Below, one piece after another: positions 8,534-62,181 of a stretch of DNA of 64,000 bases. The DNA lies in assembly GCA_030700025.1 (NCBI GenBank), contig JAUYKI010000006.1, positions 13,428 to 77,427 on the forward strand, in the 5' to 3' direction. Made by a program: the position numbers and the translations under genes. The notes beneath the pieces were generated by a model, which did no database searches, had not been told where the DNA came from, and saw only the letters and a list, made by a program, of their open reading frames with translations. This DNA comes from a bacterium (lineage in GTDB: Bacteria; Patescibacteriota; Minisyncoccia; UBA6257; 02-FULL-45-10c). Numbering within the stretch: the stretch's first letter is position 1; each line of letters starts with the position of its first letter.

Positions 8534-10390
8534 ATGCCAAAAATTATAGGAATAGATTTAGGAACAACTAATTCGGCGGTCGCGGTGGTGGAAGGCGGCG
8601 AGCCGAAAATTTTAGAAAACGCGGAGGGCAACCGGACTACGCCTTCTATTGTGGCGGTCAGCAAGGCCGGCGAACGGCTAGTGGGATTATTGGCAAAACG
8701 CCAGGCGGTTACTAATCCGAAGAATACGATTTCTTCGGTAAAGCGGTTAATTGGACGGAAGTTCAGCGATCCGGAAGTGCAAGGAGACAGAAAATGGCTT
8801 CCGTATGAAATGAAAGAAGCGTCCAATGGCGGAGTGTCCATTAAATTCGGAGATTCCTGGCTTACGCCGGAGGAAATTTCGGCCATGGTTTTGGCCAAAT
8901 TGAAAGCGGATGCCGAAGCGAAATTAGGAGAGAAAATTGAAGAAGCGGTAATTACGGTGCCGGCTTATTTTGACGACAGCCAGCGGCAGGCCACGAAAAA
9001 TGCCGGAGAAATCGCCGGCTTGAAAGTCCGCCGGATTATCAACGAACCAACAGCCGCGGCTTTGGCGTACGGCTTTAATAAAAAGAAAAATGAAAAAATT
9101 GTAGTTTATGATTTTGGCGGCGGCACTTTTGACGTTTCGGTTCTGGAAGTGGCGGAAGATACGGTAGAAGTGAAATCCACCGGCGGAGACACCCATTTGG
9201 GCGGAGATGATTTTGATAAAAAAATTAATGAGTATTTAGTTTCCGAATATAAAAAGCAGGAGGGCGTGGATGTTTCCAAAGATCCATTGGCGCTTCAGCG
9301 CCTGCGGGAAGCGGCGGAGCGGGCTAAGCACGAATTGTCCACTTCGGCGGAAACCGAAATCAATCTTCCTTATATTACTTCGGACGCTTCCGGCCCGAAA
9401 CATTTCTTATTGAAATTAACTAGGGCAAAATTAGAAGACTTGGTTAAGGATTATATTGACCGGTCGGTTGAATTGACTTTAAAAACCGTTAAAGAAGCCG
9501 GTTTTGAATTAAAGGATATTAATGAATTGATTTTAGTCGGCGGACAGACCCGGATGCCGGCAATCCAGCAGGCGGTGAAAAAAGCTTTTGGCAAAGAGCC
9601 GCATTTGGGCGTGAATCCGGACGAAGTGGTAGCGATAGGAGCGGCAGTGCAGGCCGGAGTTTTTCAGGGCGACGTAAAAGACGTTTTGCTTTTGGACGTG
9701 ACTCCGCTTTCCGTAGGATTGGAAACTCTCGGAGGGATATTTACCCGTTTAATTGAAAAAAATACTACTGTTCCGACTACCAAGTCTCAAGTTTTTTCTA
9801 CTGCTTCGGACAGCCAAACTTCGGTGGAAATCCATGTGCTTCAGGGAGAGCGGGAAATGGCTGGAGATAATAAAACTCTGGCGCGGTTTATTTTAGACGG
9901 CATTCCGCCGTCGCCAAGAGGAGTTCCGCAGGTGGAAGTTACTTTTGATATTGATTCCAACGGCATTTTAAATGTTTCCGCGAAAGATAAAGCCACCGGC
10001 AAAAGCCAGTCGGTCCGGATTGAGGCGAGCACCAGTTTGTCCAAAGAAGAAGTGGAGCGTTTGAAAAATGAGGCGGCAAAAAATCAGGCGGAAGACAAGC
10101 AAAAACGGGAAACTGTGGAAGCTAAGAATAACGCCGAGAGTTTAATTTATCTCGCGGAAAAATCCGTTAAGGAGGCCGGAGAAAAAGTTAGCGAAGACAT
10201 TAAAAAGTTGGTTCAGGAAAAAGTGGATGCTTTGAAATCCGTTAAAGATGGCAATGACGTTCAGAAAATCCAATCGGCCGCGCAAGAGCTTTCTACAGAA
10301 GTGCAGAAAATCGGGCAGGCGATGTATAAAAACGAAAAATCCGAAGAACCAAAAACTGACGACCCGCAGCCCCCGGTGGAAAATAAATAA
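8534..10390 (+). CDS. dnaK: molecular chaperone DnaK (Hsp70)
   Basis: 618 aa; Hsp70 signatures [26 protein letters not shown]. Confidence 0.95.
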
Positions 10391-12225: not shown

Positions 12226-12530
12226 ACTCGGAAACCTTTATTCTCCATTTTTGCTCAGCCGTACCACCTCTCCTCAACCCGCTCCGTTCGCTCCTGCGGC
12301 TCACTTCGCTTTGTCCTCGCGGCTCGGCCATCGAGGCTTCCGCCTTTAACGATGGGCCAAGCCCTCGCTCGCTGCGGGGGTATCGGAGAAGTAGTAACGG
12401 CTTCGCTTAAAAAATAAAGGTTTCCTCGCTAAATAAAAAAATAATAAGAAAAATCCTCCCTCACTTTTGTGAAAACGCAATAAAAAAATCCGCCATAGGC
12501 GGATTAACTTTCACAAGAGTGAGGGATCGG
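12226..12530 (+). repeat. Family-3 mosaic GC-rich repeat region
   Basis: modules CTCGGAAACCTTTATTCTCC, GCTCAGCCG.ACCAC.TCTCCTCAAC, ~130-bp unit shared with 49838-49976 (inverted), palindrome CCCTCACTTTTGT...ACAAGAGTGAGGG with inserted hairpin ATCCGCCATAGGCGGAT. Confidence 0.8.
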
Positions 12531-12542
12531 GGGATAAATAAT

Positions 12543-13307
12543 TTATTCAGCAGTGAGCTTGGACCAGACTCCGAAAGTCTGGGTTTTACAGCCCATGACT
12601 TCCTGGTAAATCGCCATGCCCAGATAAACTTTAGTTTCCATGGTGGCTTGCTGGAACGCTACTAAACCGGCGTCCATTTCAGCAAGGCGTCCAGATTTCT
12701 GAATGCCAATTAGTCCCATGCCAACTATGGCTTTATCTCCGGCTTTTTGGCAGAGAATTAATCCCACAGCTAACGCCGCTCGTTTGCCTGCTTTTTGATA
12801 GGCGACCAGTCCCAACAAATGGTCAATGTCATTTTCGGCAGATTCATACAGGGAAATTCCAGTAACAACTAAGATGTCTTTTTTAGCCCGCTGATATCCG
12901 GTTATTCCGAGGACAGTGACGGCATCGCGTCCGGCGCTCTGATATACGGTTATTCCGAGGGCGGTGGCGGCATCGCGTCCGGCGCTCTGATAGCCGGTTA
13001 TTCCGAAGCCGGTGGCGGCATCGCGTCCGGCGCTCTGATATCCGCCCAATCCGACGACGCTCATCGCATCCTCGTTAGCTTTTTGGTGAAGCGAGCAAAC
13101 AGAATAAATGCTTTTTTCGCTGACCGCGTTTCCGAAAACCGTGAAAATATTGCCGTTGATATTGATGGGCAGGCAAAGAATTGCCACCCAGGTCGCCATC
13201 TTAAGCGCCCGCAGGTGAGAGTATTTTACTCGTTTTTGGTTATTCCACATACACCATAAACAGAAGTAGACTATCGCGGTCAGGAAATACAGAACCAGAT
13301 TTTCCAT
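12543..13307 (-). CDS. membrane-anchored repeat protein (ten ~16-aa GxxGYQSAGRDAxT-like repeats), hypothetical
   Basis: 254 aa; N-terminal TM; three near-identical 48-bp tandem DNA units at 12900-13043 inside the CDS. Confidence 0.6.
   Translation of the reverse strand: MENLVLYFLTAIVYFCLWCMWNNQKRVKYSHLRALKMATWVAILCLPININGNIFTVFGNAVSEKSIYSVCSLHQKANEDAMSVVGLGGYQSAGRDAATGFGITGYQSAGRDAATALGITVYQSAGRDAVTVLGITGYQRAKKDILVVTGISLYESAENDIDHLLGLVAYQKAGKRAALAVGLILCQKAGDKAIVGMGLIGIQKSGRLAEMDAGLVAFQQATMETKVYLGMAIYQEVMGCKTQTFGVWSKLTAE
12900..13043. repeat. three near-identical 48-bp tandem repeats inside the CDS 12543-13307
   Basis: GGTTATTCCGAGG.C.GTG.CGGCATCGCGTCCGGCGCTCTGATA..C x3. Confidence 0.85.
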
Positions 13308-14165: not shown

Positions 14166-14270
14166 TTTTTTATTGTCTGAGGCTTTCTTCTCTCGCTACC
14201 GTTCAAACTCCCAGTCCCTCACTTTTGTACAAGAGTGAGGGAAGTTTTCACTGGGTTTCGGATTTCGCTC
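14166..14270 (+). repeat. Family-3 repeat unit, left part (interrupted by Family-1 copy B; right part 14403-14470)
   Basis: contiguous in the 58-kb homolog, split here by the 132-bp Family-1 element. Confidence 0.75.
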
Positions 14271-14402
14271 GCCCAGCCCTATTTATTTTGAGGAACATCC
14301 CGCAGGCGTATTTTGCTTGGACCACAAAATACGCCGAGGGCGAAGAAAATCCGGCCGCTGGAGCCGGATTATTCTGTTTCCGAGAAGTAGATAGGGCTGG
14401 GC
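14271..14402 (+). repeat. Family-1 element, copy B (full length with GCCCAGCCCTAT terminal inverted repeats; core 14292-14381)
   Basis: conserved 5-prime 57 nt; second stem AATCCGGC/GCCGGATT around loop CGCTGGA; nested inside a Family-3 repeat. Confidence 0.85.
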
Positions 14403-14510
14403 ACCATGCCCACTCAATCCTCGGCCCGCGCTACGGAGAAGAAAACCTCAGACACCTTTCTATATTTATGAAGTTGTAATATTTTTTTCATCCATCTATA
14501 CTTTATTTTA

Positions 14511-19194: not shown

Positions 19195-20895
19195 ATGAGA
19201 GACATAACTTTATTCGGACAAACAAACTTTCGGAACCAGAAAATCCGGTTCGGCATTAAGGTAGATGACCGCCGGAGGCACATGTATATCATTGGAAAAA
19301 CCGGCATGGGTAAGACCACTATGCTGGAGAATATGATTATTGCCGACATTAATGCCGGCCGGGGCGTTGGCATTGTGGATCCGCACGGCGAGCTGGCGGA
19401 AAAGATTTTAGACTTTGTTCCGGAAAGCCGGATTAAGGATGTAATTTATTTTAATCCCCAGGATTTGGAATTTCCGATTGCTTTTAATCCATTGGAGCAA
19501 GTAGGCACGGAATTCCGCCACTTGGTGGCTTCGGGAATTATGGGCGTATTTAAGAAGATATGGCCGGATGTCTGGTCGGCTCGTATGGAATATATTTTGA
19601 ACAATTCTTTACTGGCGCTTTTGGAATGCCCAGGCTCAACTTTGCTTGGCATTATGCGGATTTTGTCCGACAAAGAATACCGTAAAAAAGTAGTGGATAA
19701 TTTGAAAGACCCGGTGGTCAAGGGCTTTTGGGTAAATGAATTTGCCAAATATACCCAGCGGCTGGAAAGCGAGGCGACGGCAGCTATTCAAAACAAAGTT
19801 GGACAGTTCGTCACCAATCCGCTGATCCGTAATGTTTTAGGACAGGGGCATTCCACGGTGGATATGCGGAAGATTATGGACGAACGGAAAATTTTAATCG
19901 TTAACTTGTCTAAAGGAAGAATCGGAGAAGATAATTCCGCGCTTTTGGGAGCAATGATTATTACCAAGCTTCAGCTGGCAGCTATGTCACGGGTGGATAT
20001 TCCGGAAAAGGAGCGCCAAGACTTTTTCTTATACGTGGACGAGTTCCAAAACTTTGCCACCGATTCCTTTGCTAATATTTTATCGGAAGCCAGAAAATAC
20101 CGGCTTTGCCTGATTTTAGCGCACCAATATATCGGCCAATTGAGCCACGGAGATAATGATAAGGTGCGGGACGCGATTTTTGGTAACGTCGGAACTATGA
20201 TTTCTTTCCGGGTGGGCGCCGAAGATGGAGAATTTTTGGAAAAAGAATTCCAGCCGGACTTTATGATGAATGATTTTGTTAATTTATCCAAATATACTTT
20301 TTATACCAAGCTGATGATTGATGGAATCGCCTCCCGGCCTTTTTCCGCCCAGAATATTGAGCCATTTGTTCCTCCGGCGGTAGCGTTCCGGAATTCAATT
20401 ATTGACGAAAGCCGGAAACGGTACGGTACTGCCCGTTCCATTGTAGAAGTTAAAATTGCAGGCGAGTGGTTAGTGGATGGCGGCCGAACAGCGGATGAAA
20501 AGCCGCCCCGCCGCGAAGAAGGATTTGCGCGTCGGGATGATCGGCCCATGCATCGCGAGGAAAGGCCCGTTTATAGAGAAGACAGGCCTATGCGTAGCGA
20601 CGACAGGCCAATGCGCCGGGAAGAACGGCCATTATCAGAGGCCTTGCGCCCGGTTCCTCAGCGTTCAGATTTTCCGCCGCGCCGGAGCAATGATTGGCGG
20701 CCAGGCGGCCAGCCTACCAGCGATGGCATTCGCAGGATTCCGGTAAGGCGGGAAGAGTTCCGTCCGGCGCCGCAACCGATGGCCCCTCGGAACGATCAGC
20801 CAAGGCCAAAAGTAGACATTGCGGATTTGAAGAAGTCTTTAGACGAAATTTTATTAGATAAAATAACCAAAGAAGAAACGGGCGGAGAAGAATAG
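19195..20895 (+). CDS. AAA-like ATPase of the TraD/VirD4/HerA (DUF87-like) group with RED-rich repetitive C-terminal tail
   Basis: RRHMYIIGKTGMGKTT Walker A preceded by RH; IVDPHGEL; Walker B LYVDEFQNF; C-terminal DRPMxREERP-like repeats. Confidence 0.6.
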   Translation: MRDITLFGQTNFRNQKIRFGIKVDDRRRHMYIIGKTGMGKTTMLENMIIADINAGRGVGIVDPHGELAEKILDFVPESRIKDVIYFNPQDLEFPIAFNPLEQVGTEFRHLVASGIMGVFKKIWPDVWSARMEYILNNSLLALLECPGSTLLGIMRILSDKEYRKKVVDNLKDPVVKGFWVNEFAKYTQRLESEATAAIQNKVGQFVTNPLIRNVLGQGHSTVDMRKIMDERKILIVNLSKGRIGEDNSALLGAMIITKLQLAAMSRVDIPEKERQDFFLYVDEFQNFATDSFANILSEARKYRLCLILAHQYIGQLSHGDNDKVRDAIFGNVGTMISFRVGAEDGEFLEKEFQPDFMMNDFVNLSKYTFYTKLMIDGIASRPFSAQNIEPFVPPAVAFRNSIIDESRKRYGTARSIVEVKIAGEWLVDGGRTADEKPPRREEGFARRDDRPMHREERPVYREDRPMRSDDRPMRREERPLSEALRPVPQRSDFPPRRSNDWRPGGQPTSDGIRRIPVRREEFRPAPQPMAPRNDQPRPKVDIADLKKSLDEILLDKITKEETGGEE

Positions 20896-23224: not shown

Positions 23225-23272
23225 GCTCATAATCCTTATTCTCATAAATAAGCTCCGCCATGGTTGCCGTAG

Positions 23273-23362
23273 GGAACATCCCGCAGGCGTATTTTGCTTG
23301 GACCACAAAATACGCCGAGGGCGAAGAAAGTTTTATCGCTGGAATAAAACTATTCTGTTTCC
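23273..23362 (+). repeat. Family-1 element, copy C (core)
   Basis: ~98% identical to copy A reverse complement; flanked by direct CCGTAGG heptamers. Confidence 0.85.
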
Positions 23363-23401
23363 CGTAGGCAATCTGGCGGAGCGAGTATGTGGAAGGAGAA
23401 T

Positions 23402-25191: not shown

Positions 25192-25299
25192 ATTTCGCCT
25201 CAGTATTTCAAGGATCTTCGCGGCTTATTTTACCACGCGGAAGTGCCTAAGGTCAATTTTTCGCTCAGCCGATATTGTTTCCTGTAACTCAATTTATTT

Positions 25300-25494
25300 G
25301 CCCAGCCCTATCTATTTCTTGGAAACAGAATAGTTTTATTCCAGCCCCGACGTAAAGTCGGGGCTCCGACATCTTTATTTTAAAAATTTAATAACGAAGC
25401 GTCGGAGCGATAAAACTTTCTTCGCCCTCGGCGTATTTTGTGGTCCAAGCAAAATACGCCTGCGGGATGTTCCTCAAAACAGATAGGGCTGGGC
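25300..25494 (-). repeat. Family-1 element, copy D (full length, TIRs GCCCAGCCCTATCT; core 25321-25473 with 63-nt insertion in the CGCT/GGA loop)
   Basis: insertion itself forms two hairpins (GCTCCGAC...GTCGGAGC and CCCCGAC-TTTAC-GTCGGGG). Confidence 0.85.
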
Positions 25495-25579
25495 GCTCGG
25501 TTTGTTTGGGTATTGGGAAGGCGGTAGCGGCTTCGTTATTCTTGTTTAAGTTATAAAATCGTGATATAATATAATAACT

Positions 25580-27376
25580 ATGACCGAAAAAGGCCCCGAC
25601 TTCCTCAAAAAGAAATACGACCTCCACAAAGCTCCGGAAACGGAAACCGCCGCCAAGCGGACGGAAAAAAGAACTAACGAAAAAGTCCCTCAAGCTCCGG
25701 AAGCCCGCATCCAAAACTACCTCAACCGCTTCAAGGAAATCATAGACCGGAAAGACCCGGAAAAACGGGAAAGAGGCCTGGAAGCCATAAAAAAAGTCCT
25801 CTACGATAAATTCGTCATCCAAGAAAACGAAATCCCGGAATCATACTTTGAACTCCAAAAACGGATTGCGAGAGAACAAGGCCATGGAGAAATTGAAATC
25901 TCCAAAGAACAAAAAGACCAGCTAACCGAAGTAGTCATTACCGACCAAAGAACCACCTTGGATAACTGGGTAGACTACCTATCCTCTCCAGACGCCACCT
26001 ATCCGGACTGGCTCAAATACTGGACTATCCGGAGCATTCTGGGAATAGGCGAATACGACAAAGAAAAGAAAGAATTCACTAAACGCTCCAAAAGCACTAC
26101 CAAGCCCTTCCTGGATATCAATCGGGAAGCTTTAGCCTATGTGCTAGACGCCGTTTCCAAAAAATACGGCCAACAGCACACCAATCTCCTTAACCTCAAT
26201 GAGCAAGAAAGAAAAGACTTTGAATCCCTCCTCCAAGGAGAAAACTTCGCCAAACTCTATGCCTGGGCAATAGAAAAAACTACCGTCGCTCCTCAAGAAG
26301 CCCTGGCTAATACCCAAGGCAAATGGATTAAATACAACCAAGGACAAGACCATATGCCCTTAGTCCAATCCCTTCAAGGACACGGCACCGGCTGGTGCAC
26401 GGCCGGAGAATCCACCGCCAAAACCCAGCTTCAAGGAGGGGATTTCTATGTCTTTTACTCCATGGACAAAAAAGGCAAACCCACCCTTCCCAGAGTGGCT
26501 ATCCGCATGAACGGCAATCAAATCGGAGAAGTCCGGGGAATTGCTCCGGATCAAAACTTGGACCCCTATATCGGCGATATAGTCCAAAAGAAAATGACCG
26601 AATTTCCTGACGGCAAATCTTATGAGAAAAAAGCTGGAGACATGAAAATGCTGACTGCCATAGAACAGAAAACCCTTCGGCTCCGCTCAGGGCAAGCCAA
26701 TCAAGAATTGACCAGGGAAGAATTACATTTCCTCTATGAAATGAACCAAAAAATTCAAGGATTCGGCTATCAAAGAGACCCGCGGATTGAGGAACTAAGA
26801 AAACAAAGAAATTCGGAAGAAGATATGTTGATTATTTTTGAATGTACGAAAGACCAGATTGCCCACACTCCGAAAGAAATCAATTCAAATACTAAAGCCT
26901 ATGTCGGTAAAATTAAACTGGGTATTTTTCAAAAACTACCAGAAAATATCGAGCATGTTTATACTGAATTCCCTGACAAGAAAGTTTTTATGAAAGAGAT
27001 TGTCTCGGATGAAGAAATTATTTCTGCTAAAACCGCCATTCAAAAACTCGAAGTTCAAGGGCACAAAATTGGCGACTATGCCAGAGATATGTTATCCAAA
27101 GTAAATTGGAAGGAAAGTCTAAAAGACTCCTACAACATTATCTCTATTTCTGTTGGGGAACTTTTCGGTGACGCAAACTACCATAATTATGCCGATATCA
27201 AAGCCAAAGCTCGAGAAAGTGGCCTAGACATTATTCCAGCTTCTCTCGCTCCATCAATTCGTTTGAATTATGATAAAAATGGCGAGTGGACAGTCCTCGC
27301 TATGGAAGCGATGCGCGACCGTGACGGTAGTCTTAGGCGTTTCGGCTGGGACGGGGTGGTTCTGAGTCGTGGTTGA
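25580..27376 (+). CDS. DGR target protein (variable C-terminal CLec/FGE-like tail; VR frameshifted in this assembly, probable true end 27444)
   Basis: 3-prime 136 bp (27306-27441) homologous to TR at 27744-27879; differences almost all at TR adenines; AAC-codon register continues past the annotated stop in another frame, ending ...RFFFVRK. Confidence 0.75.
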   Translation: MTEKGPDFLKKKYDLHKAPETETAAKRTEKRTNEKVPQAPEARIQNYLNRFKEIIDRKDPEKRERGLEAIKKVLYDKFVIQENEIPESYFELQKRIAREQGHGEIEISKEQKDQLTEVVITDQRTTLDNWVDYLSSPDATYPDWLKYWTIRSILGIGEYDKEKKEFTKRSKSTTKPFLDINREALAYVLDAVSKKYGQQHTNLLNLNEQERKDFESLLQGENFAKLYAWAIEKTTVAPQEALANTQGKWIKYNQGQDHMPLVQSLQGHGTGWCTAGESTAKTQLQGGDFYVFYSMDKKGKPTLPRVAIRMNGNQIGEVRGIAPDQNLDPYIGDIVQKKMTEFPDGKSYEKKAGDMKMLTAIEQKTLRLRSGQANQELTREELHFLYEMNQKIQGFGYQRDPRIEELRKQRNSEEDMLIIFECTKDQIAHTPKEINSNTKAYVGKIKLGIFQKLPENIEHVYTEFPDKKVFMKEIVSDEEIISAKTAIQKLEVQGHKIGDYARDMLSKVNWKESLKDSYNIISISVGELFGDANYHNYADIKAKARESGLDIIPASLAPSIRLNYDKNGEWTVLAMEAMRDRDGSLRRFGWDGVVLSRG

Positions 27377-27441
27377 ATGACGATGATGGTCGCGATGACG
27401 ACAAGTGGGACGGTAACGGCCGGTTCTTCTTTGTTCGCAAG
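27306..27441 (+). repeat. DGR variable repeat (VR) at 3-prime end of target gene
   Basis: ~136 bp homologous to TR; about 20 TR-A to VR-G differences, 2 non-A differences, one 1-nt deletion in a G-run (27349-27357). Confidence 0.8.
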
Positions 27442-27494
27442 TAGCTTAATTCTTAAATCTTAAGCCCTTTAAACATCTCTTTTTCCTTATCCCT

Positions 27495-27523
27495 TATAAC
27501 TTTTTAAAAAATATTGTTATAAT
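27495..27523 (+). promoter_or_regulatory. candidate promoter with extended -10 (TGtTATAAT) reading toward the DGR template repeat
   Basis: TGTTATAAT at 27515-27523 in AT-rich spacer between VR and TR. Confidence 0.35.
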
Positions 27524-27743
27524 ATATCCGAAAGTAGGTGAATACGCAGACGACTAAGGTTTTCTGCCACCCAAATCAGTATCCATATATCGAGAATATT
27601 TCAGACCAAGGTTTGAAATAGAGTGGTGTATGCAGATTCTTCATAAAAAATGAAGTTACTTGGTTTAGAATCTAGGGCATTATGATGCCGAATACGATAC
27701 AGCTCTGAGAGTATTCTAGGGGCGGTGGTGTAGACGGATTCTA

Positions 27744-27879
27744 AACAATACGCGACCGTGACGGTAATCTTAGGCTTTTCAACTGCAACAGGAATGGTTC
27801 TGAGTCGTGGTTGAATAACAATAATGGTCGCGATGACAACAAGTGGAACGATAACAACCGGTTCTTCTTTGTTCGCAAA
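27744..27879 (+). repeat. DGR template repeat (TR)
   Basis: A-rich with many AAC/AAT codons in the target frame (NNNNGRDDNKWNDNN); followed by hairpin CTCTCCCGAT-TTTGT-ATCGGGAGAG. Confidence 0.8.
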
Positions 27880-27884
27880 TTATT

Positions 27885-28250
27885 TCATTTCTCTCCCGAT
27901 TTTGTATCGGGAGAGTTTTGTTTTGTAAGCTGTCCAAACCAACCGCCAAGCATTTTACCCACCTCATTTATTTTTTCTGAAAGCGCAATATATTTTTTAT
28001 TATCAAGCGACTTGTTTTCCCAAAGAATAAGGAGAAAGATGTTGAGCGTATTGATTTTTTTAATTGCAAGCCTTACATAAGGCGCCTTTTCTTCTCGAGA
28101 AAGAAAAACGGCAACAGAAATAGCCTCTATTGTATCGGTAAATAGATTATCTATCTTTTGACCGATGGTATATCTATGGTTTTTAGGTAGGATCCGGTAA
28201 TATTCATACCAAAGCTGGTAACCGCCTTTGATTTTCTGCAGAATTGGCAA
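27885..28250 (-). CDS. avd: DGR accessory variability determinant (Avd-like four-helix-bundle protein)
   Basis: 121 aa; resembles bAvd/four-helix-bundle family (YQLWYEYYRILPKNHRYTIGQKI ... INEVGKMLGGWFGQL); TTG start; opposite strand to TR and RT. Confidence 0.65.
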   Translation of the reverse strand: MPILQKIKGGYQLWYEYYRILPKNHRYTIGQKIDNLFTDTIEAISVAVFLSREEKAPYVRLAIKKINTLNIFLLILWENKSLDNKKYIALSEKINEVGKMLGGWFGQLTKQNSPDTKSGEK

Positions 28251-28293
28251 TAAATTTGCGAGGGGGGGGGGCTTTTAATGGATCGTTATTGTT

Positions 28294-29286
28294 ATGAAAA
28301 TTCAATTGGCTCATAAATTTGAAGACATTATAAGCGTGGAAAATCTATTGGAGGCATGGAGAGAATTTATCCGAGGAAAACGGAGCAAAAAAGACGCCCA
28401 AGAATTTTCTATTAACTTGATAGATAATATTTTCTCGCTTCATTCCGACCTTGCTGATTTTACCTATAAGCACGGCGGTTATCAAGCCTTTAATATAAGC
28501 GACCCTAAGCCGAGGAATATCCATAAGGCCAGCGTCCGAGACCGCCTGCTTCACCATGCTATTTATAGAATTCTTTACCCATTTTTTGATAAAACTTTTA
28601 TTCCTGATTCTTATTCCTGCCGGATAAATAAGGGTACGCATAAAGCCATAAATCGGCTCCGCTCTTTTGCTTACGAAGTCAGCCGGAATAACACTAAAAC
28701 CTGCTGGATATTAAAGATGGATATAAGAAAATTTTTTGCCAATATTGACCACCTTATTTTACAGGATATTTTGAAGCAATACATACCGGATAAAAATATC
28801 TTATGGCTTTTAGATAGAGTGACTGAGAGTTTTTCCTCGCCATACGGCAATAATAAGGGTTTGCCCCTGGGCAATCTAACCTCCCAACTATTGGTGAATA
28901 TCTATATGAATGAATTAGACCAGTTTGTGAAGCATAAATTAGGAATTAGGCATTATATAAGATACGCGGATGATTTTGTGATTTTGCATGAAAATCGGCA
29001 GTATCTTATAAATCTTTTGCCAAAGATGTCAGTATTTTTAGAAACGCGATTAAAGCTTTTGCTCCATCCGTATAAAGTATTTATTAAAACACTTGCCTCT
29101 GGAGTTGATTTTCTTGGCTGGGTGCATTTCCCGCGCCATCGGATATTGCGGACCGTAACTAAACGAAGAATGTTTAAAAAAATAAATCAAAATCCTACAA
29201 ATGAAACCGCGGCTTCATATTGGGGATTACTTAGTCATGGAAATACGCACAAGCTGATTCATAAAATACGAAAGCTACTCTACTAA
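28294..29286 (+). CDS. diversity-generating retroelement reverse transcriptase
   Basis: 330 aa; RT motifs incl. YADD (IRYADDFVIL); DGR-type motif 4 LPLGNLTSQ (SQ instead of group-II QG); DRLLHHAI motif 2. Confidence 0.85.
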   Translation: MKIQLAHKFEDIISVENLLEAWREFIRGKRSKKDAQEFSINLIDNIFSLHSDLADFTYKHGGYQAFNISDPKPRNIHKASVRDRLLHHAIYRILYPFFDKTFIPDSYSCRINKGTHKAINRLRSFAYEVSRNNTKTCWILKMDIRKFFANIDHLILQDILKQYIPDKNILWLLDRVTESFSSPYGNNKGLPLGNLTSQLLVNIYMNELDQFVKHKLGIRHYIRYADDFVILHENRQYLINLLPKMSVFLETRLKLLLHPYKVFIKTLASGVDFLGWVHFPRHRILRTVTKRRMFKKINQNPTNETAASYWGLLSHGNTHKLIHKIRKLLY

Positions 29287-33431: not shown

Positions 33432-34646
33432 TTGTCAAATGGAGAATTGTGTGGCATTATATCGCATATGAACGTGAGGAAGAGAAGGGTTTTCGTAGCT
33501 ATGAGTGGCGGAGTGGACAGCTCGGTCGCGGCAGCGCTTCTTAAAGAGCGCGGTTTTGAGGTAGTAGGAGCGCATATGAAATGTTGGAGCCAGGGCGGCC
33601 CTTCGACGGGGCTCAGGGCAGAATCCTGTTCCGCGGAACAGGATTCTGAAGATGCTCGCCGGGCAGCCGAAGTTTTAGGCGTTCCTTTTTATGTTTTTGA
33701 TTTTGAAAAAGAATATAAAGAGAGGGTAGTGAAGTATATGGTGGACGGCTATAAAGAGGGGATTACGCCGAATCCGGATGTAATGTGCAATAAGGAAATA
33801 AAATTCGGGCTTTTTTTAGAAAAGGCATTGGAATTAGGAGCGGATTACGTGGCGACTGGGCACTATGTGCGCCTACGGCGAAAATCCCAAATCACAAATT
33901 ACAAATCACAAACAAATTCAAAATCCAAAAATTCGAATCAAAAAAGTTTGGAATTTGGTGCTTGTGTTTTGGAAATTGCGAAGGATGAGCTTAAGGATCA
34001 AAGTTATTTTCTTTGGACTTTGACACAAAAGCAATTAAAACATTGCTTATTCCCGATAGGGGAATATAAAAAGCCCGAAGTGAGGAAGCTGGCGAAAAAG
34101 TTCGGTTTGCCGAACGCGGAGAAAAAAGATTCGCAGGGAGTATGTTTTTTGGGCCAGATTTCTTTAAAAGATTTCCTCGGTAATTATTTGCCTCAGAAAA
34201 AAGGAATAGTTTTAAATACCGCCGGCCAGATTGTGGGCGAGCATGACGGCGCGCATTTTTATACTATCGGCCAGCGCGGGGGGCTGGGTATTGGCTTGAA
34301 TAAGCCCCACTATATTGCGGAAAAGGATGTTAAAGAAAACGCCATTTTAGTGGCTGAAGAAAATGACCCGGTTTTATTTCAGAAAGAAATTGAATTAGTT
34401 AATTTAAATTTTATCATCCCAATCATCTCCCTTATTCGTGAGAATGGTGGAATGAAGGTTTTGGCGCGCGTTAGATATCGACAACCATTAACCGAAGCCT
34501 TGCTTCGGCAAATCATAAATCCCAAATCCCAAATCCCAAATTATAAGTTGGTGTTTAAAAAGCCGCAAAAATTTGTCGCTTCCGGCCAATCCGCCGTTTT
34601 CTATGATAAAAAAGGCGTCATGCTAGGCGGCGGAGTCATAGTTTAA
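33432..34646 (+). CDS. mnmA: tRNA 2-thiouridine synthase MnmA (with low-complexity insertion)
   Basis: PP-loop VAMSGGVDSSV; catalytic Cys region; low-complexity KSQITNYKSQTNSK insertion from a CAAAT(C/T)A-type repeat; alternative start 33468. Confidence 0.8.
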   Translation: MSNGELCGIISHMNVRKRRVFVAMSGGVDSSVAAALLKERGFEVVGAHMKCWSQGGPSTGLRAESCSAEQDSEDARRAAEVLGVPFYVFDFEKEYKERVVKYMVDGYKEGITPNPDVMCNKEIKFGLFLEKALELGADYVATGHYVRLRRKSQITNYKSQTNSKSKNSNQKSLEFGACVLEIAKDELKDQSYFLWTLTQKQLKHCLFPIGEYKKPEVRKLAKKFGLPNAEKKDSQGVCFLGQISLKDFLGNYLPQKKGIVLNTAGQIVGEHDGAHFYTIGQRGGLGIGLNKPHYIAEKDVKENAILVAEENDPVLFQKEIELVNLNFIIPIISLIRENGGMKVLARVRYRQPLTEALLRQIINPKSQIPNYKLVFKKPQKFVASGQSAVFYDKKGVMLGGGVIV

Positions 34647-34691
34647 GATTGTAAATCACTTTTGCGTTTTAAAATCTAAAATCGAGGCAAT

Positions 34692-34781
34692 ATCTCTTTA
34701 AAGGAACATCCCGCAGGCGTATTTTGCTTGGACCACAAAATACGCCGAGGGCGAAGAAAGTTTTGCCGCTGGAGCAAAACT
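34692..34781 (+). repeat. Family-1 element, copy E (core; flanks ATCTCTTT / AAAGAGAT)
   Basis: second stem AGTTTTGC/GCAAAACT, a compensatory AT to GC change relative to copies A/C; loop CGCTGGA. Confidence 0.85.
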
Positions 34782-35230
34782 ATTCTGTTTCCGAAAAGAG
34801 ATGTAGCCGAGATCCTTGACAAAGTTCGGGTATCTGTTATACTACCCCATAGTACATTAGCAGTGAGCAATCTTCGGGGTTCCGCCTGCCAGCGGAGCCT
34901 ATACAAATCCTGACGGGGTTTAGCAAGTAGTAAAGCTACAAAGCGCGTGGCGCTTTACTCGTCAGGCAGGCGCGACACCTTACGTTTTTTGGTGTCGTGG
35001 GGCGCTTCGGTGAAAATCGAAGTCCTGGTCAGCGCAGCCAGTCGCCGAATGAGATCTCTCCCGATGCAGGTCGGAAAGTATGATCCTCGGCGCGGCGCAG
35101 AGCGGCAAAGTCCCCGAACGCCTTCCTATCGGAAGGTATGGAAGCCCACCAGCCCCGACTTAATTGTCGGGGCCATTTTTTTATTCGCCTCGCTTTAGTA
35201 AAGGCGGATTTTTTATTACAATAGGCAGAT

Positions 35231-40130: not shown

Positions 40131-40274
40131 TTTCTTAAAAAAGAAAGCCCCCCTCTAATTTATCCCGGCTAAAACCAGGTGGGTGAGCTCAATTTTAGCC
40201 CAAGGGCTAAAATGCTATTGCTCTCCCTTGATAAATTATAATCCGGAAAAAGAGTGGGACCTTCTATAATCATT

Positions 40275-48372: not shown

Positions 48373-48427
48373 GAAAAATCAAAATGAAAAAATCAAAATT
48401 CAAAACTACAATTCAAAATTTAAAACC

Positions 48428-49785: not shown

Positions 49786-49810
49786 GGAGCGCCTAAAAGG
49801 CGCTTTTTTG
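49786..49810 (+). terminator. rho-independent terminator
   Basis: GGAGCGCCTAAAAGGCGCT then TTTTTTG. Confidence 0.7.
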
Positions 49811-49837
49811 TTTTCGTAAAAATTTGTATGAATTTAG

Positions 49838-49976
49838 CGAAGCCGCTACTACTTCTCTGAAACCCCCGCAGCGAGCGAGGGCTTGGCCCATCGTTAAGGC
49901 AGAGCCTCGATGGCCGAGCCGCGAGGACAAAGCGAAGTGAGCCGCCGGAGCGAACAAAGCGGGTTGAGGAAAGTGG
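49838..49976 (-). repeat. Family-3 repeat unit (inverted copy of 12268-12410)
   Basis: ~90% identity over ~135 bp in reverse complement; directly upstream of alaS. Confidence 0.8.
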
Positions 49977-50000
49977 TTCGGCTAAGCTATAATTTAACAC

Positions 50001-51776
50001 ATGAACTCAAATCAAGTCCGTAAAGAATTTCTAAGTTTTTTTAAGAAACACGGCCATGCCATTGTGCCGTCTTCTTCGCTGGTGCCGGATGATCCTTCGG
50101 TGCTTTTGACTACCGCGGGAATGCAGCAATTCAAGCCGTATTATGTCGGAAAAGCGGACCCGATTCGGGATTTTAACAGCCGAGATGCCTGTTCGGCTCA
50201 AAAATGTTTCCGGACTTCGGATATTGATGAAGTGGGCGACGAAATTCACCTGACTTTTTTTGAAATGCTCGGCAATTTTTCTTTTGGCGGGTATTTCAAA
50301 AAAGAGGCGATTCATTTTGGCTACAATTTTATTGTTAATGTTTTGGGAATTAATCCGGAAAGAATGTATGTTTCGGTTTTTGAGGGAGATTCCGATGTTC
50401 CGCAAGACAAAGAATCTTTCCGCATTTGGCACGAAGAGCTGGGCCTTCCGAAAGACAAAATTAAGCTCCATAGCCGGGCGAATAATTTTTGGGGGCCGAC
50501 CGGCAACGAAGGCCCTTGCGGCCCGACCACGGAAATTTACGTTGCTCCCTCCGTCGCTGAAGCTATGGAGGGCAAGGGCGTGGAGGTTTGGAACATTGTT
50601 TTTAATGAATTTTACGGGAAAAGAACAGATCAAAAATTGGAGTTAAAAAAGCTGGAAACTTTTGGTATTGATACCGGCATGGGCTTGGAAAGATTGGCGG
50701 TTATGCTTCAGGGAGTAAAAAATGTTTTTGAAACCGATTTATTTCACCCGTTAATTACTCAAATTCGGGAAGTCGCCCCGCATTTGGATGAAAGAGCGTT
50801 GCGGGTATTGGCGGATCATTTGCGCGCCTCGGTATTTTTAATCGCGGATGGCGTTCGGCCGTCCAATAAAGAAGCGGGTTATATTTTGCGCCGTCTGCTT
50901 AGAAGAATTTTAGTTTACGGAATTAAATATGACATTCACGCTGATTTATTCCCGATTGCCGTAAGTTTTGTCAAAGAAAATTACAGCGAGCAGTATCCGG
51001 AAGTTTCTAAAAATAAAGAAATTTTGGACGCGATGCTGGATGAAAAAACTAAATTTGAAAAAGCTTTGGCGCTGGGAGTTAAAGAAATTGAAAAATACGG
51101 CGAAATTACCGCCCAAGACGCCTTCTATATATATGAGACCTTTGGCTTGCCGTTTGAGCTTCTGCAGGAGTTGGTTCCAGCTAAAATTAAGAATCTGGAT
51201 AAAAAAGCGTTTGACGAGGAGTTTAGGAAGCATCAGGAAATTTCCCGCGCCGGAGCGGAGAAAAAATTCGGCGGACACGGCTTGCTTCTGAATACGGGCG
51301 AATTAAAAGCCGGGAGCCAGGAAGAATTGGATAAGGTTTTGCGTTTGCACACCGCTACCCATCTTTTACAGCAGGCGCTGAGGGAAGTTTTGGGTTCGGA
51401 TGTCCATCAGATGGGTTCGGACGTTACCGCGGAACGGACCCGTTTTGACTTTTCTTTTTCTAGGAAGTTAACGGACGAAGAAGTGAAAAAAGTGGAGGAG
51501 ATTGTTAATGGGCAAGTTCAAAAAGATTTGCCCGTCGGATTTGTAGAAATGCCGTTGAATGAAGCCCAGAAAACCGGCGCCCTTCATTTTTTTAAGGAAA
51601 AATATCCGGAAAAAGTAAAAGTTTATTACGTCGGCCATTCATTGCAAGACGCTTTTAGCAAAGAATTCTGTGGAGGACCGCATGTAACGAATACCTTGAA
51701 GGTGGGGAAGTTTAAAATTTCTAAGCAGGAAGCAGTTGGGGCCGGAGTAAGGCGTATTCGGGGAATTGTGGAATAG
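50001..51776 (+). CDS. alaS: alanyl-tRNA synthetase (short form lacking C-terminal C-Ala domain)
   Basis: 591 aa; AlaRS N-terminal catalytic and tRNA-recognition domains (FKKHGHAIVPSSSLVP, TTAGMQQFKPY) and editing-domain HxxxH (HTATHLLQQAL). Confidence 0.85.
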   Translation: MNSNQVRKEFLSFFKKHGHAIVPSSSLVPDDPSVLLTTAGMQQFKPYYVGKADPIRDFNSRDACSAQKCFRTSDIDEVGDEIHLTFFEMLGNFSFGGYFKKEAIHFGYNFIVNVLGINPERMYVSVFEGDSDVPQDKESFRIWHEELGLPKDKIKLHSRANNFWGPTGNEGPCGPTTEIYVAPSVAEAMEGKGVEVWNIVFNEFYGKRTDQKLELKKLETFGIDTGMGLERLAVMLQGVKNVFETDLFHPLITQIREVAPHLDERALRVLADHLRASVFLIADGVRPSNKEAGYILRRLLRRILVYGIKYDIHADLFPIAVSFVKENYSEQYPEVSKNKEILDAMLDEKTKFEKALALGVKEIEKYGEITAQDAFYIYETFGLPFELLQELVPAKIKNLDKKAFDEEFRKHQEISRAGAEKKFGGHGLLLNTGELKAGSQEELDKVLRLHTATHLLQQALREVLGSDVHQMGSDVTAERTRFDFSFSRKLTDEEVKKVEEIVNGQVQKDLPVGFVEMPLNEAQKTGALHFFKEKYPEKVKVYYVGHSLQDAFSKEFCGGPHVTNTLKVGKFKISKQEAVGAGVRRIRGIVE

Positions 51777-57320: not shown

Positions 57321-57345
57321 TGTATCCTCGGGCATATTGTTTTTC

Positions 57346-57435
57346 GGAAACAGAATAAATTTTTTCCAGCGAAAAATTTTTCTTCGCCCTCAGCGCATTT
57401 TGTGGTCCAAGCAAAATGCGCCTGCGGGATGTTCC
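57346..57435 (-). repeat. Family-1 element, copy F (core; flanks ATATTGTTTTT / AAAAACAATAT)
   Basis: second stem AAATTTTT/AAAAATTT; first stem carries compensatory GCGCATTTTG...CAAAATGCGC. Confidence 0.85.
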
Positions 57436-57517
57436 TAAAAACAATATACCCTTAGCTAATTGACTCAATTTTAAGGAAATAAAAAAAACCGCCGGTTCAT
57501 CCAGCGGTAAATATATT

Positions 57518-57811
57518 TTATGCAATGCGTAAAACAAGCATTGAATTTGGGAAGATACTAGAAACACCCCTCAGATTCTCCGCTCTTCCATGAGTAGAAG
57601 AGGTAAGTACCTCAATGGTCCCGACGGAATGAGCTTTAGTAAAAATACGGGATATCCCCCGAAATCCTCCATGCCCGCTATTATCTCCCGGCAAAGGAAA
57701 ACAAATAAACTTCTCATAGACTTTAAGCTCTCCAAAAGTCATCGGCTCAAAACAAGCGGCCGATTCTTGAACAATTCTCTTCTTTAAATCTTTAGCGGCT
57801 TTAGATGTCAT
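57518..57811 (-). CDS. hypothetical protein
   Basis: 97 aa; promoter ATGACA-18-TAATAT and RBS GGAGGGAAG upstream; terminator-like hairpin downstream. Confidence 0.5.
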   Translation of the reverse strand: MTSKAAKDLKKRIVQESAACFEPMTFGELKVYEKFICFPLPGDNSGHGGFRGISRIFTKAHSVGTIEVLTSSTHGRAENLRGVSSIFPNSMLVLRIA

Positions 57812-57848
57812 TTATTTCTTCCCTCCATCAAAGAGCTTCAGTAACAGG

Positions 57849-57879
57849 ATATTAGCATATTAATAGCTTGTTTGTCATA
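57849..57879 (-). promoter_or_regulatory. promoter module ATGACA-18-TAATAT (copy 1 of duplicated 35-bp promoter)
   Basis: 35-bp near-identical direct repeat with 58462-58496; immediately upstream of 57518-57811 gene with RBS. Confidence 0.55.
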
Positions 57880-57896: not shown

Positions 57897-58120
57897 CCCC
57901 CTTCCTGGGTATTTAGCGAGGAAATCTTTATTCTCCGTAGCGCGGGCTGAGGGCTGAGCGGGCAGGGTGTCCCGCGAAGCGGGACGAGCGAAGCCCGAGA
58001 CCCAGTGAAAACTTCCCTCACTCTTGTACAAAAGTGAGGGACTGGGAGTTTGAATTGTAGCGGGAGAATAAAGGTTTCCGAGTAAGGTGTTGAGGAGCGG
58101 TGGCTCGGCTGAGCGCTGAG
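57897..58120 (-). repeat. Family-3 mosaic repeat region (inverted homolog of 14166-14270 + 14403-14470 and modules of 12226-12530)
   Basis: shares ~90-bp unit CGCTAC..TTCAAACTCCCAGTCCCTCACTTTTGTACAAGAGTGAGGGAAGTTTTCACTGGG..TTCGCTCG and others with the 14.2-kb and 12.3-kb loci. Confidence 0.75.
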
Positions 58121-58190: not shown

Positions 58191-58427
58191 TTACCTTCTG
58201 TTGGGTAAACTCTTGGCCAGGACGGGTTCTTTGCGGGGAGGGATAGGCTCGGGCGAAGAATTTAAAAAGTGTCTTTGTACTTCTGCTCCGGTCACCGGTC
58301 CTTTCACGCCAGCTACATTAAACTTAGCTTTGGCACCCGCGGGACAATCGCAGGGTAAATCATTATTTCCCGTCTCCCAAACTCCAGTGCCTCCGCACTT
58401 CTTACATTCAGAGTCTATCTCTAGCAT
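58191..58427 (-). CDS. small zinc-ribbon protein (CxxCxGxG ... CxC), hypothetical
   Basis: start moved to internal ATG after RBS GGAGGAG; upstream ATG at 58475 lies inside the -10 of its own promoter TTGACA-18-TAATAT; CKKCGGTG motif; terminator 58142-58168. Confidence 0.5.
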   Translation of the reverse strand: MLEIDSECKKCGGTGVWETGNNDLPCDCPAGAKAKFNVAGVKGPVTGAEVQRHFLNSSPEPIPPRKEPVLAKSLPNRR

Positions 58428-58464
58428 TTTTTCTCCTCCACGGTAAAGAACATCACCGTGACAG

Positions 58465-58495
58465 GATATTAGCATATCAATAGCTTGTTTGTCAA
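58465..58495 (-). promoter_or_regulatory. promoter module TTGACA-18-TAATAT (copy 2)
   Basis: same 35-bp module upstream of the zinc-ribbon gene 58191-58427. Confidence 0.55.
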
Positions 58496-61995: not shown

Positions 61996-62109
61996 ATGCA
62001 AGTAAGCGCTTCAGTAAAAGCACGATGCAAAAATTGCAAGGTGGTCCGAAGGCGGGGCCGCGTTTATATTGTTTGCAAGACCGCTAAACATAAACAAAGG
62101 CAAGGATAG
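61996..62109 (+). CDS. rpmJ: 50S ribosomal protein L36
   Basis: 37 aa [37 protein letters not shown]; not in ORF track (<60 aa); zinc-ribbon C-x2-C...C-x4-H. Confidence 0.85.
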
Positions 62110-62181
62110 ATTAAATTCAAAATTTAAAAATCAAAAGTCAAAATGACAAGTCAAAATTCAAAATTAAATAAATTTAAAATT

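Follow-up and report, generated by a model that had tools for sequence, protein, structure and literature searches.

Nested hairpin-closed repeats of two subfamilies in a Parcubacteria genome segment

What are the GC-rich repeats that lie between genes at 12.3, 14.2, 49.9 and 58.0 kb of the 64,000-nucleotide stretch of DNA analysed here (the window), and what relates one locus to another? The window is sequence from a Parcubacteria/Paceibacteria (CPR) MAG with a GC content of 0.45, and the closest relatives of its AlaRS are found in Harrisonbacteria and Paceibacterota, at 70-83% identity. Genomes of CPR/Parcubacteria measure about 1 Mb and are considered streamlined. The original prediction, made from the letters alone, treated the four loci as a family of their own, Family 3, composed of short modules shuffled between loci in the manner of REP/BIME or Correia repeats. 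The copies that make up Family 3 are nested and in part degraded, and they fall into two subfamilies: Y, and X with a closing stem referred to as the T-stem. About 2.5% of the window is made up of nested structured repeats of one broad class.

Each element has a conserved interior of two to three hairpins that is closed by a stem of 13-20 bp. The elements are richer in GC than their surroundings, as had been predicted (0.57-0.59 against 0.45 for the window), and all Family 3 copies are intergenic, usually 3' of a terminator and 5' of the next promoter. Covariance models were made for Y (R1), for Family 1, another repeat of the window (R2), and for X (R3); the E-values of these models are rough. 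All four predicted loci hold Family 3 sequence, and a fifth carries the closing stem of Y, the Y-shell. The features are as follows, by position in the window.

12227-12246, plus strand: T-stem arm CTCGGAAACCTTTATTCTCC, outside Y, pairing with 12413-12428
12247-12415, minus strand (G-rich strand): Y copy 1, with Y-shell and three internal hairpins; R1 188.9 bits
12413-12435, plus strand: T-stem partner arm AATAAAGGTTTCCTCG with the conserved flank CTAAATA
12458-12525: solitary palindrome CCCTCACTTTTGT...ACAAGAGTGAGGG (hairpin module of X), with a 42-nt terminator hairpin between its halves
14174-14454, minus strand (G-rich strand): X copy 1, in two parts around a nested Family-1 element, with a covarying closing stem of its own; R3 195.6 bits
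14270-14403, plus strand: Family-1 element nested in a hairpin of X, opposite to the G-rich strand of X; R2 146.9 bits
25263-25537, minus strand: fifth locus, with Y-shell halves at 25508-25537 and 25263-25292 around the Family-1 element 25299-25495
49825-49993, plus strand (G-rich strand): Y copy 2, adjoining the AlaRS -10 box at 49987-49992; R1 185.3 bits
57884-57905, plus strand: Y-shell 5' half AGCGAAGCTGACACCCCCTTCC, outside the T-stem and X
57915-58084, plus strand (G-rich strand): X copy 2, closed by the T-stem, with small hairpin TCCCGCGAAGCGGGA; R3 205.8 bits
57917-57936 and 58063-58082: the two arms of the T-stem that closes X copy 2
58090-58114, plus strand: Y-shell 3' half TTGAGGAGCGGTGGCTCGGCTGAGC

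Y is about 170 nt long. A BLAST of the loci against the window aligns 12247-12440 with 49804-49993 in inverted orientation at 85.6% identity over 194 nt (E=4e-50), and the unit of about 135 bp that was predicted to recur inverted at 49.9 kb does so with 87.7% identity (128/146). The interior consists of three hairpins, one of them GGCCATCG...CGATGGGCC, and is closed by the Y-shell of about 20 bp, the sides of which read GCTCAGCCG..CC.CTCC and GGAGAAGTAGTA.CGGCTTCGCT. The Y-shells differ among copies, and the orientation of Y relative to its flanking genes is mixed. The 49.9-kb copy has an imperfect flanking repeat, AAATTATA / AAATTCATA; the other copies are without any. This copy adjoins the TATAAT of the AlaRS gene and supplies the sequence TTGAGG at the -35 position. 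The AlaRS start codon follows 7 nt past the TATAAT (49987-50003), and the box is kept in a relative, L002; since the start codon lies so close to a conserved box, the sequence suggests that the AlaRS mRNA is leaderless or near-leaderless.

L002 (relatives' sequences are numbered with the prefix L), an ENA contig with an AlaRS 83% identical to that of the window, is the sole close relative carrying Y. The Y of L002 and that of the window are about 65-70% identical and differ on both sides of 10-12 pairs, but the fold is kept. R1 also matches a Y-type element in L008 (39 bits), which lies between convergent genes, 3' of a terminator, and has GAUAACCC, a CGCUGGA loop and GCGGGUUGAG in common with Y; weaker matches occur in L065 and L033. 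When the eight R1 hits are aligned, 95.6% of cells pair and 36 of 42 pairs change on both sides, against 30-46% paired in a control with the partners slid, figures to be read with the caution that the alignment is model-fitted, leans toward structure and includes two cross-hits to Family 1.

X is also about 170 nt long when unsplit (57915-58084). It contains a closing stem of 17-20 bp, a CCCTCACTTTTGTACAAGAGTGAGGG hairpin and a second branched domain, and a comparison of its two copies finds 7 of 53 pairs compensated. A unit of about 90 bp around a palindrome had been predicted to be common to 14.2 and 58 kb in inverted orientation. This sharing was borne out by BLAST at 90.5% identity (14183-14277 against 57979-58073), while a second inverted match of 84% (14396-14444 against 57927-57975) gives the other part of X: the 14.2-kb copy is split by the Family-1 element at 14270-14403. 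The closing stems of the two X copies are unlike, CTCGGAAACCTTTATTCTCC at one and GTCTGAGGCTTTCTTCTCTC at the other; that of the 14.2-kb copy, GTCTGAGGCTTTCTTCTC / GAGAAGAAAACCTCAGAC, covaries with the T-stem. In the T-stem itself, CTCGGAAACCTTTATTCTCC pairs with (GGAG)AATAAAGRTTTCCTCG, and on the G-rich strand of X the stem reads CGAGGAAA.../...UUUCCGAG. The 20-mer CTCGGAAACCTTTATTCTCC occurs twice exactly and once with three mismatches, with none expected by chance. GTAGCG adjoins the T-stem, not a palindrome.

The 26-nt palindrome is the hairpin module of X and is found at 14216-14241 and 58015-58040, flanked in both cases by CCCAGT and AAGTTT. The solitary copy at 12.46 kb has other flanks (AATCCT and ATCGGG), and its loop holds the terminator (12487-12505) of gene 12543-13307 on the minus strand. 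The half-site of the palindrome is observed six times against 1.45 expected; exact scans for the X palindrome in genome and metagenome contig collections found none. The ORF 12543-13307 (minus strand) contains four tandem 48-nt repeats at 12838-13070, 63-89% identical, and had no Pfam match.

The short modules of the original prediction do recur, but they are not free-standing: they are the 5' and 3' halves of the two closing stems, the T-stem and the Y-shell. AATAAAGRTTTCCTCGCTAAATA matches at 22 of 23 positions between 12.2 and 58 kb, and GCTCAGCCG..CTCCTCAAC, the 5' half of the Y-shell, at 23 of 26. The order of the parts differs between loci. At 12.2 kb, the T-stem is outside and Y inside; at 58 kb, the Y-shell is outermost, followed by the T-stem and then X; at 25.4 kb, the Y-shell encloses a Family-1 element that has a 60-nt insert in its P3 loop (25.35-25.40 kb). 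The Family-1 element at 14.3 kb lies where the X copy at 58 kb has a 15-nt hairpin, TCCCGCTTCGCGGGA. The T-stem and Y-shell thus close different interiors at 12.2, 25.4 and 58 kb, and the loci are nested like Russian dolls. Elements sit in the hairpins or closing stems of others, in either order, and in one case inverted.

Around the 58-kb locus, a 37-nt block is shared by 57841-57877 and 58458-58494 (95% identical). It lies upstream of two small minus-strand genes of unknown function, 57518-57811 and 58191-58475, and contains the promoter-like sequence TGACAA-17-TAATAT. The syntenic region of L001 is without this gene pair, the intervening Family 3 locus and a 1839-aa LVIVD-repeat gene.

Family 1 has six copies in the window, at 3897-4030, 14270-14403, 23251-23384, 25299-25495, 34681-34814 and 57324-57457, three on each strand. 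Its fold is a three-way junction, the outer stem differs from copy to copy, and 22 of 45 pairs are compensated. The cores are 97-100% identical, whereas the outer closing stems are only about 50% alike and yet always paired; only the 14.3-kb and 25.4-kb copies have an outer stem in common. R2 finds members in L001, L002, L006, L010, L028, L031, L041, L042, L055 and L062. These loci come from several candidate phyla within Parcubacteria and have as many as four copies within 19 kb.

The idea of Family 3 as a separate family did not hold up, as X is tied to Family 1 through elements of relatives, and R1 cross-matches Family-1 copies at 18-35 bits. R3 matches elements of L042 and L041, here called type II, at 25-41 bits, on the opposite strand to the R2 matches (30-47 bits) at the same loci. 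The G-rich strand of X aligns to type II over GAGCGGGCAKGGU.UCC(C)GC...GCGG(G)A.GAGCGA, and the T-stem closure on this strand is GA/GA with GGAA/UUCC, as in Family 1. X fits the class in its long closing stem, its GA/GA and GGAA/UUCC pairs and a branched interior detectable by R2/R3, and by these model matches it is the reverse-strand relative of the element class linked to Family 1. R2 does not detect Y or X at E<=1, so the relation to Family 1 is a distant one, and the link of Y to the class is weaker than that of X because it consists of the R1 cross-match, with Y missed by R2. Family 1 and type II have in common with Family 3 the outer stem, the tandem GA/GA, GGAA/UUCC, branched hairpins and a CGCUGGAG-like loop, but not the interiors, in which the hairpins differ in number and sequence. 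A third hairpin-closed element type is also present in relatives, for example at about 6175-6320 of L041, with the stem GGGAACACTGCCC/GGGCAGTGTTCCC; it is reversed in L084. The third-type or replacement blocks are 5990-6323 in L041, 14791-15109 in L042 and 14638-14960 in L084, which also has one at 9525-9942.

Comparison of orthologous sites shows that the elements turn over. Upstream of AlaRS, the window has Y in inverted orientation and L002 has Y forward plus Family 1, while L001, L123, L124 and L125 have no element. L041 and L042 are 96.5% identical over 9.5 kb, and yet one intergenic block is wholly replaced between them: L041 has an inverted type I element, with a different outer stem, and a third element type, where L042 has type II and a forward type I. 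Downstream of AlaRS, L084 is empty, whereas L042 and L041 are filled with a type II element; the empty site of L084 already has GAAAGATAACT, like one arm of the L042 stem. Two paralogous copies in L042, at 11795 and 14785, have identical 112-nt cores, whereas the orthologous copy in L041 differs.

Elements of the Family-1 type are also found inside genes. A 142-nt element in L010 (643-784) lies antisense and in-frame within AlaRS, where it adds 44 residues between REVAP and LHEKALR that are missing from four orthologues; its outer stem takes in the conserved Glu-Val-Ala-Pro codons of AlaRS. Similarly, L055 (9143-9308) and L028 (16927-17072) have Family-1-type elements antisense and in-frame within MnmA, in the same loop between ATGHY and KDQSYFLW and with differing outer stems. 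In contrast, 29 hits checked gave no copy of Y or X inside genes, and the intact copies at hand number two to three for each. As read from these comparisons, the class would seem to behave as mobile or exchangeable DNA, with direct signs of insertion in the related Family-1 class rather than in Y or X. Instead of transposition, DNA uptake followed by allelic recombination could account for the intergenic replacements between close genomes.

The MnmA ORF of the window (33432-34646) has AT-rich low-complexity repeats of the CAAAT/CCAAAT type at 33881-33931 and 34510-34560, translated as KSQITNYKSQTNSKSKNSNQKS and NPKSQIPNYK. The first of these lies in the same loop as the structured elements of L055 and L028. 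Repeats of this type are also intergenic, at 48375-48425 and 62093-62177.

The prediction that the repeats are rich in hairpins is supported by folding: compared with shuffles, z is -4.6 to -7.3 on both strands, and the folding energy favours the G-rich strand. Wobble counts on model-fitted or RNAalifold pairs were set aside as a strand test, being biased or uninformative, and the registers of the outer stems were instead found by a neutral search that scored G.T and A.C alike. Over 20 Family-1 and type II elements, copies that are not independent, the outer stems on the forward (G-rich) strand have 36 G.T against 3 A.C, and the intact Y and T stems have 12 G.T against 1 A.C. The degraded Y-shells at 58 and 25.4 kb reverse this (3 G.T against 8 A.C), and the asymmetry vanishes over all helices from both-strand RNAalifold predictions. 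Taken together, the wobble asymmetry and the folding energy favour the G-rich strand and thereby suggest that the active form is single-stranded, whether as RNA or as one strand of DNA. In X and type II, the G-rich strand runs antisense to the flanking genes; all 6 window copies of Family 1 are co-directional with a gene that flanks them. A promoter scan at 12.2 and 58 kb found no promoter-like site for the G-rich strand.

A search with Rfam 15 found only two tRNAs above threshold in the window, and permissive scans of the loci gave at best generic hairpin (miRNA) models, scoring 10-21 bits where the thresholds are 43-211. Hammerhead and other small ribozymes, RNase P-like RNA, SRP and 6S RNA, retron ncRNA, omega/bridge RNA and integron attC sites were all dropped, as there was no Rfam signal and no adjacent partner gene in a Pfam scan of the window ORFs. 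Elsewhere in the window, 40159-40251 on the minus strand has a sub-threshold match to 6S RNA (29.7 bits against a gathering score of 46.4, E=0.036). The spurious ORFs that the repeats were predicted to generate are present in the elements, and a six-frame concatenate used as query found no relatives of them in the protein database. A literature search found no account of such repeats in Parcubacteria or Patescibacteria; the family is apparently undescribed, and absent from Rfam. Several motif hits were also discarded: a degenerate Y 5' motif had 38 matches in metagenome contigs, all by chance in high-GC coding DNA, and none in viral contigs, while the Family-1 and type II motifs had 23 and 5 matches in viral contigs, none of them confirmed by R2.

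The Pfam scan of 40 window ORFs found no transposase, whether Y1, RAYT or TnpB, nor any other enzyme able to move the elements, which speaks against the mobile reading. The window has a gene for a reverse transcriptase, which is part of a diversity-generating retroelement (DGR) at 25580-29286. This gene spans 28294-29286 (RVT_1, 4e-24); the template repeat lies at about 27743-27889 and the variable repeat at about 27306-27451, at the end of ORF 25580-27376. Nineteen of the differences between template and variable repeat are A>G, and the frame of the variable repeat is shifted by a 1-nt indel. Another gene, at 19195-20895, encodes a TraG/TrwB-like type IV coupling protein (TrwB_AAD_bind, 2e-14) in otherwise housekeeping surroundings.

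Among described repeats, the Rickettsia palindromic elements (RPEs) are a case close in architecture. They are non-coding palindromic repeats of 100-150 nt that form several subfamilies in a small-genome bacterium. Ogata et al., in 2000 and 2002, reportedly found them with a long hairpin, both between genes and in-frame in housekeeping genes. The repeats of the window resemble them in having several subfamilies of non-coding palindromes with a long hairpin that are intergenic, and in occurring in-frame within conserved genes as well as between genes (here for the Family-1 class only). However, the likeness is one of architecture across different phyla, and RPEs differ from the present elements, which have a conserved multi-branched interior, variable closing stems and mutual nesting. 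The ERIC or IRU sequences of enterobacteria are imperfect intergenic palindromes of about 127 nt, conserved across genera and variable in orientation, with variants that arise through insertions at fixed internal sites. In all these respects of form they are alike, including the internal-insertion variants, but ERIC is a simple long hairpin from another taxon, whereas Y and X are three-way or four-way junctions and what is nested here are whole other elements.

Correia (NEMIS) elements and MITEs have conserved terminal inverted repeats, a target-site duplication (TA for Correia) and a variable interior, and the pneumococcal BOX is modular. Here, too, there are small non-coding repeats with paired ends, possible promoter- or terminator-like signals and, as in BOX, modularity. 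The relation of ends to interior is the opposite, however: the ends are variable and the interior conserved, more as in a functional RNA. No conserved terminal repeat or target-site duplication was detected at the element ends, and neither terminal inverted repeats of about 26 bp nor a TA duplication were found at the ends of Y and X. A MITE of a known IS was rejected, as the elements have no match in plasmids, phages or viral contigs and there is no transposase in the window.

REPs are 20-40 nt long, have a cognate RAYT gene (PMC3116915, PMC3337134, PMC3733652) and have one end of the palindrome marked by the tetranucleotide GTAG or CGTC (PMC3733652), while their REPIN arrangements show compensatory evolution of the paired arms and clustering or nesting (PMC3116915, PMC3337134). 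The elements of the window share with REP, BIME and REPIN sequences the extragenic palindromes in mosaics, compensatory arm changes, a position near gene ends and a likely active form as a single-stranded hairpin. They differ in being about five times larger, with units of 166-170 nt and 42-53 bp in several helices; the 26-nt palindrome module alone has the size of a REP, the palindrome bears neither a GTAG nor a CGTC tag, and there is no RAYT among the 40 ORFs scanned. The predicted resemblance to REP/BIME and Correia repeats therefore stands as far as mosaic, GC-rich, hairpin-forming intergenic repeats go, but membership is not supported, by size, tag, terminal inverted repeats and TA duplication, and with no RAYT or transposase in the window. 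Since defining features of REP, Correia and ordinary MITEs are lacking, Family 3 is filed under none of them.

Which explanation fits best? We lean, by a little, towards Family 3 being non-autonomous selfish repeats of a hairpin-closed Parcubacteria class, moved or exchanged as units. A quite different view, which we consider unlikely but serious, is that Y and X are multi-copy genes for a functional small structured RNA, for example one that is protein-binding or processing-related, homogenized by gene conversion and immobile, with nesting as tolerated expansions at hairpin loops. A conserved interior with covarying stems is the classic RNA pattern, CGCUGGAG, GCUUGG and the tandem GA/GA beside GGAA/UUCC recur across distant lineages, the outer-stem wobbles and folding energy favour the G-rich strand, and paralogues are closer than orthologues, as in the identical 112-nt cores of L042 from which the L041 copy differs. 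Covariation, strand asymmetry and an interior that is conserved while the stems vary thus keep this view alive. Yet the architecture is not fixed, since Family 1 can point either way relative to the shells and the shells nest in either order; orthologous sites lack the elements or have others in their place, even at 96.5% genome identity; relatives lie antisense and in-frame in AlaRS and MnmA, a location that would be senseless for an RNA gene; and there are no promoter-like sites, no Rfam family and no consistent orientation of Y to the flanking genes. It is very improbable that the repeats are simply fragments of one known IS, prophage or plasmid, or an artefact of assembly or chance, to the point of being nearly negligible. 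Repetition itself could raise that suspicion, as could two Logan contigs from the same sample (SRR13727534) that match the window ends exactly and terminate within the repeats. However, the independent assemblies agree with the window at 100% over the overlap, covarying homologues exist in other genomes, the chance expectation for the motifs is about zero, no transposase is nearby, and the match to a single known IS or prophage fragment that the original prediction named as its refutation was sought in plasmids, phages and viral contigs, with none found.

Two further readings keep mobility and differ in the agent. Single-stranded DNA hairpins of REP/REPIN or IS200/IS605 type would be moved by a Y1 (HUH) transposase, for example a RAYT elsewhere in the genome. 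Hairpin structure conserved rather than terminal sequence, one favoured strand and insertion that seems to be at hairpin apices all suit such a mechanism; G.T wobbles, tandem G.A pairs and GCGAAGC mini-hairpins are stable in DNA too, and REPINs are known for compensatory arms and clustering or nesting (PMC3116915, PMC3337134). We nevertheless regard it as decidedly unlikely: at 130-190 nt and with their three-way junction, the units are not 20-40-nt REPs or doublets, the 26-nt palindrome is without the GTAG/CGTC tag of the definition (PMC3733652), the window encodes neither a Y1 transposase nor TnpB, and there is no orientation bias relative to GC skew (Family 1 is three plus and three minus, and Y and X occur on both strands). 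A more speculative proposal, rather unlikely in our estimate, is a new, CPR-specific mobile structured nucleic acid, the folded core of which is copied into the apex of a hairpin with a stem partly derived from the target. It is in keeping with the empty site of L084, which has the arm GAAAGATAACT, and with the L010 stem, which uses AlaRS codons; a reverse transcriptase gene, that of the DGR, is present in the window. Target-derived stems would explain near-identical cores with copy-specific, perfectly paired stems and, if real, would amount to structure-guided, possibly RNA-mediated insertion, for which there is no described bacterial counterpart.

Under the selfish-repeat explanation that we favour, a function with its gene elsewhere would move or exchange non-coding, multi-branched elements of about 130-190 nt, each as a discrete unit. 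The apices of hairpins or palindromes already present may be preferred sites for new copies, as two or three cases suggest, and this would result in nesting and copy-specific outer stems. Foldability kept on the G-rich strand would reflect a single-stranded active form, most simply a transcript, otherwise one DNA strand. Effects on the host, such as protection of RNA ends, termination or the supply of a -35-like box as at AlaRS, would be secondary.

The presence of this repeat class means that such DNA persists in genomes considered streamlined, turns over between near-identical genomes and can occupy essential genes. The repeats break assemblies (Logan contigs end there) and generate spurious ORFs. 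They also reshape promoter regions, as one copy adjoins the AlaRS -10 box, and they add peptide inserts to conserved enzymes of relatives. With its conserved core, variable closing stems and self-nesting, the class offers a tractable entry to the biology of mobile DNA or RNA in uncultured bacteria.
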